Assembly (NCBI GenBank): GCA_044226015.1
Contig: JBGAHS010000010.1
Location: forward strand, 64,001-128,000
Length of the DNA: 64,000 nucleotides
Reading direction: 5' to 3'
Source: Candidatus Obscuribacteraceae bacterium
Lineage (GTDB): Bacteria; Cyanobacteriota; Vampirovibrionia; Obscuribacterales; Obscuribacteraceae
Position 1 is the first letter of the stretch. Each line of letters begins with the position of its first letter. Shown here piece by piece: positions 1-15,780 of this stretch. Position numbers and translations under genes: made by a program. The notes beneath the pieces were generated by a model. That model saw only the letters and a list, made by a program, of their open reading frames with translations. It searched no databases and had not been told where the DNA came from.

Positions 1-317
1 CAAGCAGGTTGCGTCCAAGAAGAGAAAAGAGCCAGCTAAGTTGGCTTTGAATACTCCGGACGAAGCCAACAACTAGCTGCAGGCATCGGGACCGCAAGCG
101 AGAACTTGTGTGAACCAGAGCCTGTCCGCACAATATGCGTTTTTTGAAGTCTAAAAGATATACGCTCTATATCTTGTGTTTTCGCGCCTGGGCGAAAATT
201 TATGAGTCACCGACCCAACATCCGTATGTATGTCGATTAGTCCTTTATTTGAAGTGGAATAGTTCAAACGAGGTCGGCATCGCTTGACCGATTTACGAAG
301 ACCACTGAGGTAGGATT

Positions 318-1109
318 ATGGCGGCTAGAGCTATCTGGACGGGGATTATCACTTTTGGAATGGTTAGCATTCCGATAAAGCTATACTCAGCTACGGAGAA
401 TAAGGATATTTCCTTCAATCAGTTGCATGTTGAATGTAAGGGACGTATCAAAGAGTTCAAGTTTTGTCCAACCTGTGACAGAAAAGTTGAAACGGATGAG
501 CTAGAGAAGGGCTACGAATACGCCAAAGGGCAGTACGTGATCATCAACAAAGATGATCTAGAAAAAATTCCTCTTCCAACAAAGAACAATATTGCGATTA
601 CTTCGTTTGTTCGCCTGGATGAGATTGACCCTGTTTTTTACGAGAAAACATATTACATCGAACCTGATGAGGCGGCGAAAAAACCGTTTGCTTTGTTCAT
701 GCGTGCGATTCAAGAAAAGGGTATGACGGCTATCGCAAATATTACGATGCGTACTAAAGAGCGTCTTTGCGCACTTCGTCCGATGGACGGTACACTTGTT
801 ATGAATACTTTGCTGTATCCAGATGAGATTCGGATTGGTCGCGGAAAAGCGCTTCCGGATGTTGCTGTTTCTGACAAAGAAATTGGCATGGCTGGAATGT
901 TAATCGACATGATGACACATGAGTTCAAACCTGAGGACTACAAAGATAATTACAGAGAAGCGTTGCTGAAAATTATCGAGGCAAAACTCGAAGGAAAAGA
1001 GATTGCAGAGGCTCCTGCCGCAGCTCAAGCCAACGTTGTGGATCTTATGGATGCTCTTGCTGCCAGCATGGAAAAAATGAAAGCACAGAAAACTGCTGCC
1101 ACGGGTTAG
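318..1109 (+). CDS. ku: Ku protein (NHEJ DNA end-binding)
   Basis: N-terminus RAIWTGIITFGMVSIPIKLYSA, KGYEY, IDPVFYEKTYYIEP and C-terminal NVVDLMDALAAS match prokaryotic Ku; adjacent to ligD. Confidence 0.95.
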   Translation: MAARAIWTGIITFGMVSIPIKLYSATENKDISFNQLHVECKGRIKEFKFCPTCDRKVETDELEKGYEYAKGQYVIINKDDLEKIPLPTKNNIAITSFVRLDEIDPVFYEKTYYIEPDEAAKKPFALFMRAIQEKGMTAIANITMRTKERLCALRPMDGTLVMNTLLYPDEIRIGRGKALPDVAVSDKEIGMAGMLIDMMTHEFKPEDYKDNYREALLKIIEAKLEGKEIAEAPAAAQANVVDLMDALAASMEKMKAQKTAATG

Positions 1110-1127: not shown

Positions 1128-4100
1128 GTGAACGACGACGGCAAGGATGACTCAGAACCAGATTCGCAAGCTGCACAGAGCAGCTATGTGGATCTGGTTC
1201 GTTCCATTCAGGGTCTACCTGGGGTGCGCAAGACTGCATTCCCGTCTTACTTCCCTCCCATGCTCGCGAGTCTTGCTGAAAATGCATTCTCTAAGTCAGG
1301 TTGGATATATGAACCAAAAATGGATGGAATGCGTTGCATTGCGTTTATTGATGGAAACAAAGTAAAGCTACTCTCTCGGCGCGGTAAGAATATAACAGCG
1401 CAATACCCAGCTCTCGTTGCATCTTTACCGGAGTTGTGTAAATGCAGAGTTGTTTTGGATGGTGAAATAATTGCCCTCAATGCTGATGGTAAGCCATCAT
1501 TTCAGCTGCTTCAGCAGCGAATGAATCTCTTGAATGTAAGCGATATTTCCAGAGCAGACGCGCGAATACCTGTTCATTTCTTCGTTTTTGATATAGTTTA
1601 TGCCGCTGAATTTAGCCTGGCATCGACATCTCTGGTAAATAGAAAATCTGTATTGCAAAATTGTTTGACGGCATCATCAAACATCGTGATACTCAGGCAT
1701 TTCGAAGAGAACGGAAAGATTGCTTTTGAGGCGTGTATCGAGCACGGATTCGAAGGTATCGTCGCTAAACGAAAAGAAAGTCCCTACGAAACGGGGCGCC
1801 GGTCGCCATATTGGGTGAAGGTGAAAGGCACCAAAACTAGCGAGTTCGTCATAGCTGGATATAGTATGGGACAGGGATCTCGCTCAAACACCTTCGGTTC
1901 TCTGGTATTGGGCTATCACGATGCTCAGGGGCAGCTAGTGTACGCAGGGAGCGTCGGTTCTGGTTTTGATGAAAGATTGCTAGCAGACATGCTTCGCAGA
2001 ATGGATCCTTTGAAAATCAAGGCTTGTCCTATCTTGGGGATCCCCTCCGATAAGCGTGATTCCACCTGGGTGAAGCCAGAGCTGGTGGCAGAAATAAAGT
2101 TCATGGATTGGACTGATGATATGCATCTGCGAAATCCTGTTTTCTTGCATTTGCGGCATGATATCAATCCTGCCGAGGTGAAGGTAGTGAAGGCTATAGA
2201 TCTGTCGGAACTCGATAAAATTTCGGGGCGCTCAGGGAGCGATGATGTCGCGGGGAGCACAGGGAGCGATGCTGTCGCGGGGAGCACAGGGAGCGATGCT
2301 GTTGCGGGGCGCATGGGGCGCGATGATGTTGCGGGGCGCACCGGGCGCGATGATGTTGTGGGGCGCACAGGGCGCGATGATGTTGTGGGGCGCACAGGGC
2401 GCGATGATGTAGCGGGGCGCACCGGGCGCGATGATGTAGCGGGGCGCACCGGGCACGATGATGTTGTGGGGCGCATAGGGCGCGATGATGTTGTGGGGCG
2501 CAGAGGGCGCGATGAAGGTGTGGCGTGTTCCGACGACCTGCCATTTTCCGATGCTGAAAATTCAGAGGAACAATTTGGTTTTGATTTGCTCAAGCCGTCG
2601 GGTGGCGACCCGATCTCCCAACAAATGCTGTTACCTGGTGCTAATGTTGAATCACAGGTTGCTGCCTCTGCTGCAGAGTCTGGATTGCCAGTAATGCATC
2701 CAAGGGCGAAGCCACCGGCTGATCCATCGGTCGTCGATCCGAGTGGTGCCGGAATGGATCCGTGTGGTGCCGAAATGGATTCGAGTGGTGCCGGAATGGA
2801 TCCGTGTGGTGCCGGAATGGATCCGTGTGGTGCCGAAATGGATCCGAGTGGTGCCGGAATGGATCCGAGTGGTGCCGAAATGGATCCGAGTGGTGCCGGA
2901 ATGGATCCGAGTGGTGCCGGAATGGATCCGAGTGGTGCCGGATTGGATTCGAGTGGTGCCGGAATGGATCCGTGTGGTGCTAACACTCTGATTTCCAGCA
3001 AATCGCTCAACGGCACCGCCAGTAGTGCGGCTTCTGGATCGGGTTTGGGACCAGGTTCTGGAGCGGGTTTGGGACCAGGTTCTGGATCCGGTTCTGAATC
3101 AACTCCTGAATCAACTCCTGAATCAACTCCTGAATCAACTCCTGAATCAACCACTGAATCAGCTTGCGAAGCGGTTGTTCCCAATGAAGCATTAGTCCTC
3201 GAAAGAACAATTGAGGACATAGAGAGAGAGTTTCCCCTCTGGCAAAAGCTTGCGCAAAGCGTCATTGGTCAGTTGAGTGGAAAAGAAAAAAGCTATGCGT
3301 TAACTGTGGAGCAGGCGACAATCTCTTTGACAAATCTGGACAAAGTGCTGTATCCCTCGACGGAAAATTATCCTGCCGTCACCAAGAGAGATTATCTAAA
3401 AACGATTGCTTTCTTGGCGCCGTATATGTTGAAGCATCTATACGATCGACCCTTAACCATGATCCGCGCTCCGAGTGGAGTCCGCTCTCGCAGTTTCTAT
3501 CAAAAACACTGGAACCTCGATATTCCTGATTATTTGGAAAACATTCGAACTGAGCCTGATGATCCTACTCGACGAGATCAATTGCTCTGCAACAGCGTGG
3601 CGGGTTTGATTTTCCTTGCGCAAAATAACATTCTCGAATACCACTGTTGGCTTTCGCGCGTGCCTCACTTGGCTAAGCGAGGTGGCGAGCACACGGATTT
3701 GTCCTTGCTTGAAATTCCTGATTTTATGGCGTTCGACATCGATATCCATAGAGATGGCGAAAAGGAAAGTAAGCTGTTAGATCTAGCTCTCTTTGAGAAA
3801 GCCAGGGAAGCTGCATTTAAGCTAAAAGAAACGCTAGATCAACTTGGGCTTCCCTCGTTTTTGAAAACATCGGGAAGAAACGGACTTCATGTTTTCATTC
3901 CGATTATTCGTGACTTGAGGTTTGATGAGGTACGGGTTCTTTCGGAGATGATTGCTAAGCATGTCGAATCGAAATATACGCAAACGATATCTACTAGTGC
4001 GGTTGCGGCAAAGCGGGCTTCAAAAGTGTTCCTGGACTACCAAGCCAATACGAGAGGCAAAACGATCACGCTGCCCTATTCACCAAGATTGACTACGAAT

Positions 4101-4265
4101 GCCACGATCTCAATGCCTATAAGCTGGGCAGAACTTGAGCGGGTATATCCAGGAGATTTCAATCAGCGTGTCATTCAGGAGTTTGTTAATGCGAGAGGCG
4201 ATATCTGGAGCGATATTATGCGAAACCCTGATGATCTTGCAAAACGCTTTCACACAAAAAGATAA
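1128..4265 (+). CDS. ligD: DNA ligase D: ATP-dependent ligase domain, long repeat-derived linker, C-terminal primase-polymerase domain
   Basis: Ligase motifs [38 protein letters not shown]; polymerase motifs [37 protein letters not shown]...PYSPR; no phosphoesterase domain recognised. Confidence 0.92.
2225..2515 (+). repeat. In-frame 27-bp tandem repeat in ligD (about 11 x [13 protein letters not shown])
   Basis: Unit gggcgcgatgatgttgtggggcgcaca visible in DNA and protein. Confidence 0.9.
2736..2980 (+). repeat. In-frame 21-bp tandem repeat in ligD (about 12 x DPSGAGM-like)
   Basis: Unit gatccgagtggtgccggaatg. Confidence 0.9.
3036..3162 (+). repeat. In-frame 24-bp (GSGLGPGS) and 12-bp (ESTP) tandem repeats in ligD
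   Basis: gggtttgggaccaggttctgga x2, then gaatcaactcct x4-5. Confidence 0.85.
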
Positions 4266-4367
4266 GGTAAAAAGCGAGTCGAAATACAAATGCTAGTGTG
4301 CGGATATACGATCGGCTTTTGCAAAATATACCTTCTAGGATAATTCTCTAACATTGTGGGAACCGCA

Positions 4368-4396
4368 TTGACACGGCTCCAGAGAGATTCTAGATT
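4368..4396 (+). promoter_or_regulatory. Sigma70-like promoter of the retron transcript
   Basis: TTGACA (4368-4373), 17-bp spacer, TAGATT (4391-4396), about 30 nt upstream of the a1 arm. Confidence 0.6.
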
Positions 4397-4428
4397 GATA
4401 CGCAGCAGTGAAATTTTGGAGGTGATAA

Positions 4429-4588
4429 GCATCTCTGGACCGCAGCGCGGTTTCGGTTGATGTTTCGTCAACCTGCTTTTACTGGGAATGACACGGGCAT
4501 TCGGTACACGTCTGCTTCGCATCCAGTTCCCTCAGCCCTTCCACCATACAGTACGCATTCCACTTTCAACTCGGAATAGCAGAGATGC
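4429..4588 (+). ncRNA. Putative retron msr-msd ncRNA
   Basis: a1 GCATCTCTG (4429-4437) is the reverse complement of a2 CAGAGATGC (4580-4588); unpaired G4438 follows a1 (candidate branching G); hairpins ACCGC-agc-GCGGT (4439-4451) and GGTTGA-tgtttcg-TCAACC (4455-4473); directly upstream of a retron-type RT. Confidence 0.7.
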
Positions 4589-5463
4589 CGTCATCATCCA
4601 TAGCACTGCCAATTATCAAAACCGAACGAGACCTCGCCGAATTCTTCGCTATCTCTGAATTTGAGTTGAAGCGTTTTTGTATTCGCACACAGGGTTTTTA
4701 TCATAGTTTCGAACGTCCAAAAAAGTCTGGAAAAGGGATGCGGATTATCTCTGCTCCGTCGGAAGCTTTGAAAGAACTGCAGCGCAAGATCAAGCGGGAT
4801 ATTTTGGATTTGCTTGAAACCCACTCGTCATGTATGGGTTATAAAAAGGGATTCTCCATAGTTGATAATGCTGCCCCACATGTTGGACAGCGATTCGTTT
4901 TGAATCTAGACATCAAAGACTTTTTTCAGTCAATCAGTTCTGCAAGAGTTGCGGGGTATTTTTGCTCCTTAGGATACTCAGAGGAAGTTTCTGTTTTGCT
5001 TTCTCGAATATGCTGCTACAAAAATGCTTTGCCACAGGGGGCGCCAACGTCGCCATCCCTGGCTAATTTGATTTGTAGTAAATTGGATAGAAGGCTTTGT
5101 GGAGTCGCCCGGAAAAACGGACTGGTTTATACGAGATATTGTGATGATATCACCATATCTGGTGGTGCTTTTGTTAAGCCGGGTTTGCAGCACTTCATTC
5201 AAGGTATTATTGCGGAAGAGGGGTTTGAGGTCAACAAAGACAAGACCCGTTTGCTCAGTCGCCGTTCTTGTCAGACTGTTACAGGGCTAGTTGTGAACGA
5301 GAAAGTTAGTATCCCGCGAAAGCGCAGGCGATTGATTCGTGCTATCTTGCACCAGTCAGAATTAGGACGCTCGCCTGGCATGTGTAACAACTATGTTTCT
5401 GGGTTACGCGGGTTTATGAACATGGTAAAAGTTCGAAGCTGTTCGGTGGGCTCGGCCATTTAG
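4585..5463 (+). CDS. Retron-type reverse transcriptase (292 aa, RT domain only)
   Basis: RIISAP..LK..Q, region X NAAPH, LDIKDFF, LPQGAPTSPSLAN, catalytic YTRYCDD, region Y VTGL; no maturase, HNH or fused effector domain. Confidence 0.9.
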   Translation: MPSSSIALPIIKTERDLAEFFAISEFELKRFCIRTQGFYHSFERPKKSGKGMRIISAPSEALKELQRKIKRDILDLLETHSSCMGYKKGFSIVDNAAPHVGQRFVLNLDIKDFFQSISSARVAGYFCSLGYSEEVSVLLSRICCYKNALPQGAPTSPSLANLICSKLDRRLCGVARKNGLVYTRYCDDITISGGAFVKPGLQHFIQGIIAEEGFEVNKDKTRLLSRRSCQTVTGLVVNEKVSIPRKRRRLIRAILHQSELGRSPGMCNNYVSGLRGFMNMVKVRSCSVGSAI

Positions 5464-5476
5464 AGTATATTCCTGA

Positions 5477-5558
5477 TAGGCGTTCGCGAAAATCTGCGAA
5501 GCGGTAGGGTCTCGGGAAAATCTGCGAAGCGTTAGGCGTTCGCGAAAATCTGCGAAGC
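5477..5558 (+). repeat. Three 28-bp degenerate units of the GCGAAGCGATAGC element family
   Basis: taggcgttcgcgaaaatctgcgaagcg-like unit x3 fills the gap between the convergent RT and ADP-ribosylhydrolase genes. Confidence 0.75.
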
Positions 5559-8340: not shown

Positions 8341-9441
8341 GTGCTCAAAGCTGGAATTGTCGGATTGCCGAACGTTGGAAAATCAACTTTATTCAACGCT
8401 TTGACGGCATCATATCAAGCCGAAAGTGCTAATTATCCATTTTGTACGATTGAGCCCAATGTTGGAATCGTGAAGGTACCAGACACTCGTCTCGACAAAC
8501 TGACTCGGATGGTAAATCCCCAACAAACAATTCCAGCGGCATTCGAATTCGTTGATATTGCTGGGCTGGTTCGAGGCGCAAGCAAAGGCGAGGGACTAGG
8601 CAACCAATTTCTAGCTCATATTCGGGAAGTTGATGCGATAGTGCATGTGGTGCGTTGTTTCGATGACGAAAACATAACTCACGTTGACGGGCAAATTAAT
8701 CCTGTGCGGGATCTCGAAACGATCACCATTGAGCTTTGCATGTCTGATTTTGCTTCAATTACTAAGCGACTTGAGCGCTTGCAAAAACAAAAGCGAACCG
8801 GCGACAAACGTGCCGTTTTGGAATGCAGCATTTTTGAAAAAATTCTTCCGCAGATTGAAAATGCTCAGGCTGTCGATATGAGCCTTTTGACTGATGATGA
8901 AAAAGAAATTGTTCCACAGCTTCAATTGTTGTCAACAAAGCCCTTACTCTATGCTGCAAACGTGAAGGAAGAGCAGCTGGGAAATCCAGATTCGAATCCG
9001 TACATTCAAGAGTTGCGCAAACGAGCTGCTGAAGAGAATCGCGCAGTGGTTATTATTTCGGCTCAAATTGAAGCTGAGTTAGCTGCCCTGGAAGCCGAAG
9101 AGCGTCAATCTTATTTAGAAACGTTGGGTGTGAAGGATTCGGGTGTTAACAACTTAATTCGAGCTGCCTTCGAACAATTAGGCTTAGTAACCTATTTCAC
9201 GGCGGGTGAAAAAGAAGTAAGAGCCTGGCCGTTTGAACGAGGTTTCACTGCTCCTCAGTGTGCGGGGATCATTCATACTGACTTCGAAAGAGGCTTCATC
9301 AAGGCTGAAGTGATTTCTTACAACGATTACGTGAACTGTGGAACAGAAAAAGTCTGTAAAGAAAAGGGTCTGATGCGGCTGGAAGGCAAGAGCTACGTGA
9401 TGCAGGATGGAGATGTTGTGCATTTTCTATTCAATGTCTAA
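8341..9441 (+). CDS. ychF: Redox-regulated ATPase YchF (Obg family)
   Basis: [57 protein letters not shown] aaggag upstream of GTG. Confidence 0.97.
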
Positions 9442-9484
9442 GCGCACTTTGGGTGCAGGCTCTTGGAATGCCTTTAAAAATAAT

Positions 9485-9999
9485 GCTGTTCGCGAAAATT
9501 CGAGTTGGGGCAGAAAAACGCGGAGCGATACCTGTTCGCGAAAATTCGAGTTGGGGGAGAAAAACGCGAAGCGATAGCTGTTCGCGAAAATTCGAGTTGA
9601 GGGAGAAAAACGCGAAGCGATAGCTGTTCGCGAAAATTCGAGTTGAGGGAGAAAAACGCGAAGTGATAGCTGTTCGCAAAAATTCGAGTTGAGGGAGAAA
9701 AACGCGAAGCGATAGCTGTTCGCGAAAATTCGAGTTGAGGGAGAAAAACGCGAAGCGATAGCTGTTCGCGAAAATTCAAGTTGAGGGAGAAAAACGCGAA
9801 GCGATAGCTGTTCGCGAAAATTCGAGTTGAGGGAGAAAAACGCGAAGTGATAGCTGTTCGCAAAAATTCGAGTTGAGGGAGAAAAACGCGAAGTGATAGC
9901 TGTTCGCAAAAGTTCGAGTTGGGGAGAAAAACGCGAAGTGATAGCTGTTCGCGAAAATTCGAGTTGAGGGAGAAAAACGCGAAGCGATAGCTGTTCGCG
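9485..9999 (+). repeat. Tandem array, 46-bp unit x about 11, GCGAAGCGATAGC element family
   Basis: Unit gctgttcgcgaaaattcgagttgagggagaaaaacgcgaagcgata at 9485, 9531, 9577 and onward. Confidence 0.95.
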
Positions 10000-10192
10000 T
10001 TTGGGATTGCAATGAGTAACCAGAAGCTATATCAAAGAATCGTGATTCTGCCTCTCTGCGTTGGTTTTGGGGCGTTACATGGTTTCGATAGCGCTTTTGA
10101 TTAAGTGGCGATTATAAATGAATTTAGTGGTTTCCAAAACTCTCATCGCACCTTGCATAGAATGATCTGTAATTCCCTCTGGGTCACATAAA

Positions 10193-15401: not shown

Positions 15402-15780
15402 GAAAAACGAGAAGCGATAGCTGTTCGCAGAAAAACGAGAAGCGATAGCTGTTCGCGAAAAACGAGAAGCGATAGCTGTTCGCGAAAACGAGAAGCGATA
15501 GCTGTTCGCAGAAAAACGTGAAGCGATAGCTGTTCGCAGAAAAACGTGAAGCGATAGCTGTTCGCGAAAACGAGAAGCGATAGCTGTTCGCGAAAAACGT
15601 GAAGCGATAGCTGTTCGCAGAAAAACGTGAAGCGATAGCTGTTCGCGAAAACGAGAAGCGATAGCTGTTCGCGAAAAACGTGAAGCGATAGCTGTTCGCA
15701 GAAAAACGAGAAGCGATAGCTGTTCGCGGAAAACGTGAAGCGATAGCTGTTCGCGGAAAACGTGAAGCGACAGCTGTTCG
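15402..15780 (+). repeat. Tandem array, 26-28-bp unit x14, minimal core of the GCGAAGCGATAGC element
   Basis: gaaaaacg(a/t)gaagcgatagctgttcgc(a) head-to-tail between convergent genes. Confidence 0.95.

Follow-up and report, generated by a model that had tools for sequence, protein, structure and literature searches.

A retron without a linked effector, probably derived from type II-A, downstream of ku-ligD in a Candidatus Obscuribacteraceae bacterium

Background

Retron reverse transcriptases (RTs) are defined by a YxDD motif, an NAxxH motif in region X and a VTG motif in region Y (PMC6868368), and the opposing-G layout of retron RNA is described in PMC7736814. Type II-A retrons such as Retron-Eco1/Ec86 have an NDT and winged-helix effector (Mestre et al. 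2020, PMC7736814), and the long msd stem of Ec86 engages its effector (PMC13158370). Orphan retrons are also described: in the Ec107 (Eco5) branch and in clade 11, RT and RNA occur with no associated protein, and the effector is thought to have been lost (PMC7736814). Retron-Bth1 is another effector-less case (PMC12548924). The role of such retrons is posed as a question in PMC7736814, with effectors acting in trans or some other function as the possibilities.

Here we describe a retron in a 64,000-nucleotide stretch of DNA (the window) from a Candidatus Obscuribacteraceae bacterium (Table 1). It resembles type II-A retrons in that the Ec86 RT is its nearest solved relative by both sequence and fold, and in its a1/a2 arms, its opposing Gs and an msr hairpin whose short loop is rich in T. 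Its sister loci (see below) consist of an NDT gene, RNA and RT, as do type II-A loci on viral contigs. However, no NDT is found here in cis or elsewhere in the genome, the promoter is dedicated, and the msd is without a long stem. Further differences are a YCDD or YGDD motif in 39 of 43 aligned rows and a chromosomal, vertically inherited location rather than carriage as prophage cargo. Because it has no effector, we regard the element as derived from the type II-A kind and not as a member of it.

The arrangement of RT and RNA without an associated protein is shared with the Ec107 and clade 11 orphans, and the Ec107 RT also has YCDD (PMC6868368). However, the RT scores 244 bits with the RT_Ec107-like model versus 299-307 bits with the II-A and XIII models, and Ec107-like rows, which were labelled by PADLOC best match in a tree that left out Ec107 itself, branch apart. 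The partner that was likely lost here is an NDT, not a PRTase, and members of the present family occupy two fixed, paralogous sites and have a conserved element upstream. Vertical inheritance is a feature in common with the type XIII retrons of myxobacteria (SWIM and ARM proteins), which also give the RT its top PADLOC score by a small margin; yet type XIII rows form their own clade, the RT here has no N-terminal extension, and SWIM-like genes are neither linked to the retron nor co-occurring with it. Finally, G2L4 RT, a domesticated enzyme that acts in break repair (bioRxiv 2022.03.14.484287), is likewise encoded on its own in the chromosome and has an altered residue in YxDD, and by analogy with it we propose a host repair role. 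Unlike the present element, which keeps a dedicated primer-template RNA, it belongs to another RT class (17% identity, Foldseek TM 0.57).

In the open-licence literature, we found no paper on this retron family, on retrons beside ku-ligD or on the LexA motif of the lineage. Orphan retrons are already known; the toxin-less variant of this family appears to be new within that literature.

Table 1. Features of the retron locus and its upstream neighbourhood, in window positions
Feature	Position	Strand	Remarks
Putative LexA (SOS) box	219-232	+	YATAC-N4-GTATG palindrome, 1 mismatch; binding inferred
ku (NHEJ end-binding protein)	318-1109	+	TIGR02772, 302 bits; upstream of RT in 16/60 loci
ligD (ligase and primase-polymerase domains)	1128-4265	+	Long repeat linker in this strain
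Conserved upstream element	4304-4351	+	ATATAC-like boxes 4304-4309 and 4326-4331 (22 bp apart); block 4338-4351
Sigma-70-type retron promoter (predicted)	4368-4396	+	TTGACA-N17-TAGATT; conserved among homologues
a1, 5' arm of priming helix	4417-4437	+	Perfect core 4429-4437
Branching G (predicted)	4438	+	Opposite G4579; invariant in 20/20 aligned cores
msr core, predicted RT-recognition element	4439-4473	+	Hairpins 4439-4451 and 4455-4473
msd template (ends predicted)	4474-4578	+	Predicted RT-DNA at most about 105 nt, without long stem
a2, 3' arm	4580-4600	+	RT start codon (4585) inside
Retron RT, 292 aa, unfused	4585-5463	+	Motifs, family models, predicted fold
Three 26-nt palindromic repeats	5477-5558	+	3' of RT; also elsewhere on contig, not retron-specific

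Results and discussion

Identification of the RT

All retron parts claimed in a first-pass annotation of this DNA were found where it had placed them. The RT carries the NAAPH, YCDD and VTGL motifs reported there and scores 248.7 on the NCBIfam model retron_St85_RT (cut-off 235). Among solved structures, its nearest relative by sequence is the Ec86 RT (E 9e-63, 41% identity), with a group II RT at E 9e-8. The predicted fold (pLDDT 87.6) also matches the Ec86 RT best (TM 0.83-0.84), and Foldseek ranks 1-17 are all retrons. In trees that contained retron rows only, without a non-retron outgroup, the RT groups with retron RTs. There is no second RT of this kind in the window's genome, and the nearest named relatives are Candidatus Obscuribacterales and Melainabacteria MAGs.

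The RT itself is unfused, and its homologues were examined for fused forms. The top 105 matches of near-equal length score 345-470 bits, the best longer protein is one 1494-aa record (346 bits), and other longer proteins score at most 326 bits. The 1494-aa protein (P0121) joins a related RT to kinase, LRR and TPR domains, and is possibly a misassembly.

The motifs and fold of the RT, together with the covarying a1/a2 and msr structures and the invariant G described below, identify the element as a retron, as originally suggested. We are highly confident that it is an effector-less retron of type II-A derivation, and by the biochemistry of known retrons its product would likely be a 2'-5' branched msDNA.

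Structure of the msr-msd RNA

The a1/a2 repeat had been given as 9 bp (4429-4437 and 4580-4588). The repeat is present, but the helix is longer than this, at about 19 bp with bulges over the arms listed in Table 1. On its own, the 9-bp repeat is not beyond chance, but the fold of positions 4400-4600 (201 nt) is, with a z score of -2.85 and only one of 200 shuffles as good. Conservation among homologues decides in favour of the a1/a2 structure. The arm sequences vary from genus to genus, yet 75 of 77 a1/a2 cells are paired across homologues, with 11 distinct arm pairs and changes on both sides. The position of a2 was, however, chosen as the best-pairing stretch after a G-C step, and this biases the result toward pairing. 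The locus's own arm is the best partner in 12 of 18 cases and never ranks below fourth; own-arm duplexes have energies of -26 to -37 kcal/mol versus foreign-arm medians of -10 to -19. The sequence TAG precedes a2 in 26 of 31 loci, and the predicted branching G indeed stands directly 3' of a1.

Both short hairpins proposed for the msr are conserved: 98.8% of cells are paired, compared with 22-53% in slid controls, and none of 500 shuffles scores as high. Two-sided changes occur in seven of the 13 pairs, most of them resting on single sequences. Rfam holds no relevant family for this retron RNA and gave two chance matches.

The msd had been described as having short competing stems instead of one long hairpin, and in the window this is correct: the predicted DNA fold has a z score of 0.02, with a longest stack of 6 bp. 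Window positions 4500-4560 of the predicted RT-DNA are single-stranded and rich in purines, with numerous GG runs; this tract occurs in the window's genus only.

An in-frame ATG lies 5 nt into a2 in six of 31 loci, namely the full set of five from the window's genus plus one more. Since the RT start codon is then inside a2, the priming fold would hide the start, and feedback is possible. A candidate displaced ribosome site (GGAGGTGA at 4418) was rejected, because it belongs to the extended a1 arm.

Distribution and genomic sites

RT matches occur in 49 of the 107 genomes of the order. We mapped 60 loci, comprising the window and the 59 matches outside the window's genome, all of which were fetched. 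Group A (16 loci, six genera) has ku, ligD, promoter, RNA and RT, with outer flanks that vary by genus and, in one locus, an extra gene between. Group B (19 loci) has the retron behind gcvPB in a housekeeping block, with gcvPB visible in 18 loci and no ku nearby. The promoter, upstream element and msr core are common to both groups. Group C (19 loci) has longer RTs and is a separate system.

Group C is a second retron-like family within the same bacterial family (L149-L168, e.g., L158:4122-5270 on the minus strand) and is absent from the window's genome. Its RTs, of about 385-400 aa, form their own clade with varied neighbours and are extended at the C terminus by a region with a weak match to WYL (E 0.02). 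A very short conserved element of about 80-100 nt has end repeats, one hairpin and a sigma-70-type promoter upstream. Group C may represent an RT-WYL fusion system that has yet to be described.

A covariance model of the RNA core, a check that the first-pass annotation had suggested, matches 35 of the 107 genomes of the order and none of 120 genomes from other families of the class. Nearly all of its 43 matches adjoin a whole RT, and we therefore rejected the idea that RT-less RNA copies are served in trans. There are four exceptions: one lies next to an RT fragment, another falls at the end of a contig, and two are weak (E about 0.001) and were viewed as sequence only. A pattern scan of metagenomes gave 14 matches, each with an RT behind it: six follow ligD, seven are of the group B type, and one contig is too short. 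The msr pattern gave no match in viral contigs, and plasmid and phage RTs among the matches listed are at most 41% identical.

Maintenance, inheritance and decay

RT dN/dS is 0.01-0.24 in the 11 of 18 pairs that are unsaturated. RT dS, which ranges up to saturation, is similar to the value obtained for ku, ligD or gcvPB from those pairs. YxDD is kept in 41 of 43 rows, and RT subclades follow genera. The GC3 of the RT equals the genome median; its codon use is at the 7th percentile of the genome. Judged from these sequence comparisons, the RT is under purifying selection and is vertically inherited at two chromosomal sites.

Retron relics lie downstream of ligD in five genomes of one genus (L173-L177). 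These loci have kept ku-ligD, the promoter and the arms, and have lost the RT. In four of these five RT-less relics the model fails to recognise the msr core, which is intact beside whole RTs. All five genomes keep a gcvPB-linked copy, as do 8/8 genomes of that genus. The five relics can be arranged as a series of decay stages. At another locus (L156, in G068), some 9 kb downstream of ku-ligD, the RT is degenerate and lacks YxDD; a promoter is present there, but no msr can be recognised. The retron is thus dispensable over long times.

Promoter and conserved upstream element

The proposed promoter is present and matches the consensus at ten of 12 positions. Promoter-like sites are not rare enough for this to carry weight alone (seven seen, including this one, versus 3.3 expected). 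Conservation adds to it: TTGAC of the -35 box is invariant in 15/15 aligned homologous regions. Searching 21 genomes at the DNA level for the promoter stretch gave the window as the sole match and was uninformative.

In 16 of 18 relatives, the proximal ATATAC box is placed 42 nt upstream of TTGAC, and the tandem boxes keep a constant spacing to the -35 box in both group A and group B. The tandem pattern, which was derived from the retron promoters themselves, occurs in 25 of 30 of these and in three of 227 background regions. In its full form, the element is unique in the window's genome. Single ATATAY boxes are found upstream of recA (23/29), recJ (15/30) and ku (13/26), and in 45 of 227 background regions.

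A ribbon-helix-helix protein was considered as regulator of the ATATAC boxes and rejected, since its own promoter has another conserved repeat and the tandem pattern occurs there in 1/30 cases. This highly conserved, ribbon-helix-helix-like protein of 197 aa is encoded in 86 of 107 genomes (L357-L386; G000:C1:168530-169120), and a conserved repeat of TACAA/TTGTA units over its promoter suggests autoregulation.

Contigs from two studies (X1 and X2) cover the ligD end, RNA and RT with zero and two differences; the retron layout is therefore no assembly artefact. REP-like intergenic palindromic arrays with a common TTCGCGAAAAT core occur at window positions 5477-5558, 9427-10012 and 15416-15686.

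The ku-ligD neighbourhood

Both ku and ligD are on the same strand as the retron, and ligD ends 102 nt before the -35 box. A LexA-like palindrome occurs upstream of lexA in 24 of 25 regions (box regions L417-L441), upstream of 18 of 26 ku orthologues and in one of 105 background regions. In the window's genome, it also precedes ssb-like, helicase-like and ribonucleotide-reductase small-subunit-like genes, these names being our reading of the sequences. The gap between ligD and the retron promoter (69-182 nt) contains no terminator-like hairpin in 15/15 loci, and read-through from ku-ligD under SOS control is plausible. The earlier claim that the retron has no co-transcribed effector gene stands for the effector families searched, but the absence of any co-transcription is not secure.

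The 26 close ku orthologues are followed by a whole retron in 16 cases, by RNA at a contig end in one, by a relic in five and by nothing in four. A group A retron is present in one genome that has no ku, while a relative from a metagenome carries the two together. In this bacterial family, genes that neighbour each other in the same direction usually stay together from genus to genus (16 of 21 and 14 of 19 pairs, which are not independent). Given this high background synteny, the ligD junction needs no functional cause.

The ligD gene of the window contains about 300 extra residues of in-frame short tandem repeats between its domains (positions 2190-3200), and a related strain lacks 210 nt of this linker.

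Absence of the effector and origin from type II-A

Four relatives outside groups A and B group with their RTs: MAGs of Myxococcales, Phycisphaerales and Fimbriimonadia, and one genome of the host family. An order-wide search around the Myxococcales sister gave matches in two of 89 genomes. These sisters form one clade with A and B in 285 of 300 bootstrap trees, and in 173 of 300 Ec86-like rows are included too (the short row L169 was left out of the first tree, the second tree consists of 49 selected rows, and L351 was ignored in split counts). The RT_II-A model matches 11 of 14 members, and the XIII and III-A models nine each. In all four sister loci, an NDT-winged-helix (NDT_II-A) gene lies directly upstream of the RNA. 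These proteins are 31-40% identical to one another, and their homologues on plasmids are named 'retron St85 family effector'. In group A, ligD occupies the slot of this toxin gene.

The NDT model matches one of 107 genomes of the order, which is the host-family sister, the genome with a tripartite retron. No NDT was detected in the window's genome with the sister protein, a four-sequence profile or a second model. A type III-A PRTase is likewise not found in the window's genome; it is absent from four of five genomes tested, with one weak match in a giant ORF. The orphan reading given by the first-pass annotation thus holds for the effector families searched. An effector beside homologues, which would have spoken against that reading, is confined to the sister group, where it explains the origin of the present form by NDT loss and does not undo the reading.

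Other candidates were rejected. The convergent ADP-ribosylglycohydrolase gene is beside the RT in one of 60 loci only, and a HerA-like ATPase gene upstream of some gcvPB-linked copies is found at eight loci of a single genus. SWIM-HEAT gene pairs do not co-occur with the retron: SWIM (type XIII-like) proteins are encoded in 20 of the 34 genomes with the retron and in 29 of the 73 without it. Pairs of a SWIM zinc-finger gene and a long helical-repeat gene (G000:C11:905830-910686 and C10:516466-520378) resemble the type XIII effector module and have no RT nearby; the SWIM model matches 49 of 107 genomes in all.

The predicted RT-DNA fold has z scores of -3.8 to -7.5 in all seven NDT-bearing loci (-3.8 to -6.6 in the sisters), and of +1.3 to -4.3 in 18 effector-less loci, two of which are below -3.8. 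The long msd stem goes with the toxin and is weakened or mostly lost in the toxin-less family.

As judged by these comparisons, the retron likely lost the NDT toxin of a type II-A ancestor. We infer loss rather than gain because NDT is also the partner of the next group out, a placement weakly supported at 173 of 300 trees. A simple origin is opposed by the position of the sisters, which are nested within A and B; groups A and B alone form a clade in 0/300 bootstrap trees. However, a single origin of A and B is not rejected in the AU test (p 0.36), and the shared promoter element favours one origin.

A proposed function and its alternatives

We propose, tentatively and by analogy, that the element is a domesticated, damage-linked producer of msDNA that titrates host repair proteins; the whole chain of steps falls somewhat short of probable. 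After loss of the NDT toxin, it would have descended vertically as a two-part host element. Transcription would start from the predicted promoter, and the RNA would fold. By analogy with known retrons, the RT very probably recognises and binds the msr hairpins and starts synthesis at the 2'-OH of G4438, with about 105 nt of msd as template. Expression would rise on DNA damage through read-through from the LexA-boxed ku-ligD operon, and the ATATAC boxes would perhaps add to damage induction. In the least certain step, the bulged, partly single-stranded RT-DNA would titrate MutS, SSB, RecJ or Ku, and this titration would tune repair or mutation rate.

The damage link is proposed because of the LexA-like box on ku, the absence of a terminator before the retron and the ATATAY boxes at recA, recJ and ku. 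A reading based on ku and repair is weakened by the five genomes that have ku-ligD and have lost the RT, by the retron without ku and by the location of group B away from ku. As to titration, mismatched msDNA titrates MutS, but this required roughly 100-fold overexpression (PMC6868368). Other observations that count against the proposal are that the RNA model finds nothing in 72 of the order's 107 genomes, and that the LexA-like palindrome is absent from 30 recA regions and 31 retron promoters. The tandem boxes are rare at recA (1/29), recJ (3/30) and ku (0/26), and when the whole genome was scanned with the tandem-box profile, repair genes were not clearly enriched among the top 50. Also, msd sequence is poorly conserved between genera, and no specific msDNA ligand is therefore implied. 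A broader form of the proposal, in which the retron belongs to a family-wide SOS repair network through read-through and its own operator and its ssDNA product feeds or gates end joining, is doubtful. If true, this would give retrons their first example of a housekeeping role in repair.

The choice between a trans effector and a non-defence role, both raised by the first-pass annotation, leans to the latter. In classic defence, the RT and msDNA would restrain an unlinked toxin of a family other than those searched. Most characterised retrons work this way, Mestre et al. name trans effectors as an option (PMC7736814), an RT without an effector is thought incapable of defence (PMC13158370), and addiction would account for purifying selection. 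Redundancy would also predict that genomes losing one RT keep the gcvPB copy, as the five do, yet these belong to one genus in which every genome has that copy. Because NDT is absent, PRTase is absent in four of five genomes, SWIM proteins do not co-occur and the effector-binding stem is mostly lost, we consider a trans toxin unlikely, though a serious contender. Stand-alone activity against phages is rather doubtful. Here the RT and msDNA would soak up phage SSB, recombination or end-binding proteins, or the RT would become toxic on infection. The msDNA of Eco8 is bound by phage SSB (PMC13158370), and predicted RT-DNA is just about 40% paired in most effector-less loci, but fixed housekeeping sites, core-like dS and absence from viral contigs are unlike patchy mobile defence genes.

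Ku-LigD may instead be an acquired partner, with msDNA or RT feeding or gating NHEJ, for instance by patching or bridging breaks. The occupation of the lost NDT slot by ku-ligD in 16 loci of six genera with differing outer flanks points this way, as do six of the 14 metagenome matches, the lack of a terminator and the correlation between RT and Ku distances (r 0.90 overall, 0.60 between genera). However, the background synteny is high, losses are separate in both directions, and the arrangement goes back to just one ancestral juxtaposition. The link is missing from the 19 gcvPB-linked loci, and ku was not found in three outside sister genomes, whose completeness is not given. We judge such a partnership quite improbable. 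Least probable by far is that the retron is a neutral, slowly decaying toxin-antitoxin relic. Decayed copies do exist (RT lost in five genomes, degenerate in one), and codon use is at the low percentile given above; the low dN/dS and retention of YxDD largely refute neutrality, and the msr hairpins are intact beside whole RTs and decayed in four of five RT-less loci.

Conclusions

In this family, the same RNA core is found in sisters that carry the toxin and in descendants that do not, so that the two can be compared directly and the question of effector-less retrons becomes testable. Toxin loss is accompanied by loss of the long DNA stem and by acquisition of a conserved promoter. For genome editing, too, compact retrons that have no toxin and offer new RT-RNA pairs are direct candidates. 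Selection on the RT implies that the two-part form still does something, and if a repair or stress role is true, retrons reach beyond phage defence.
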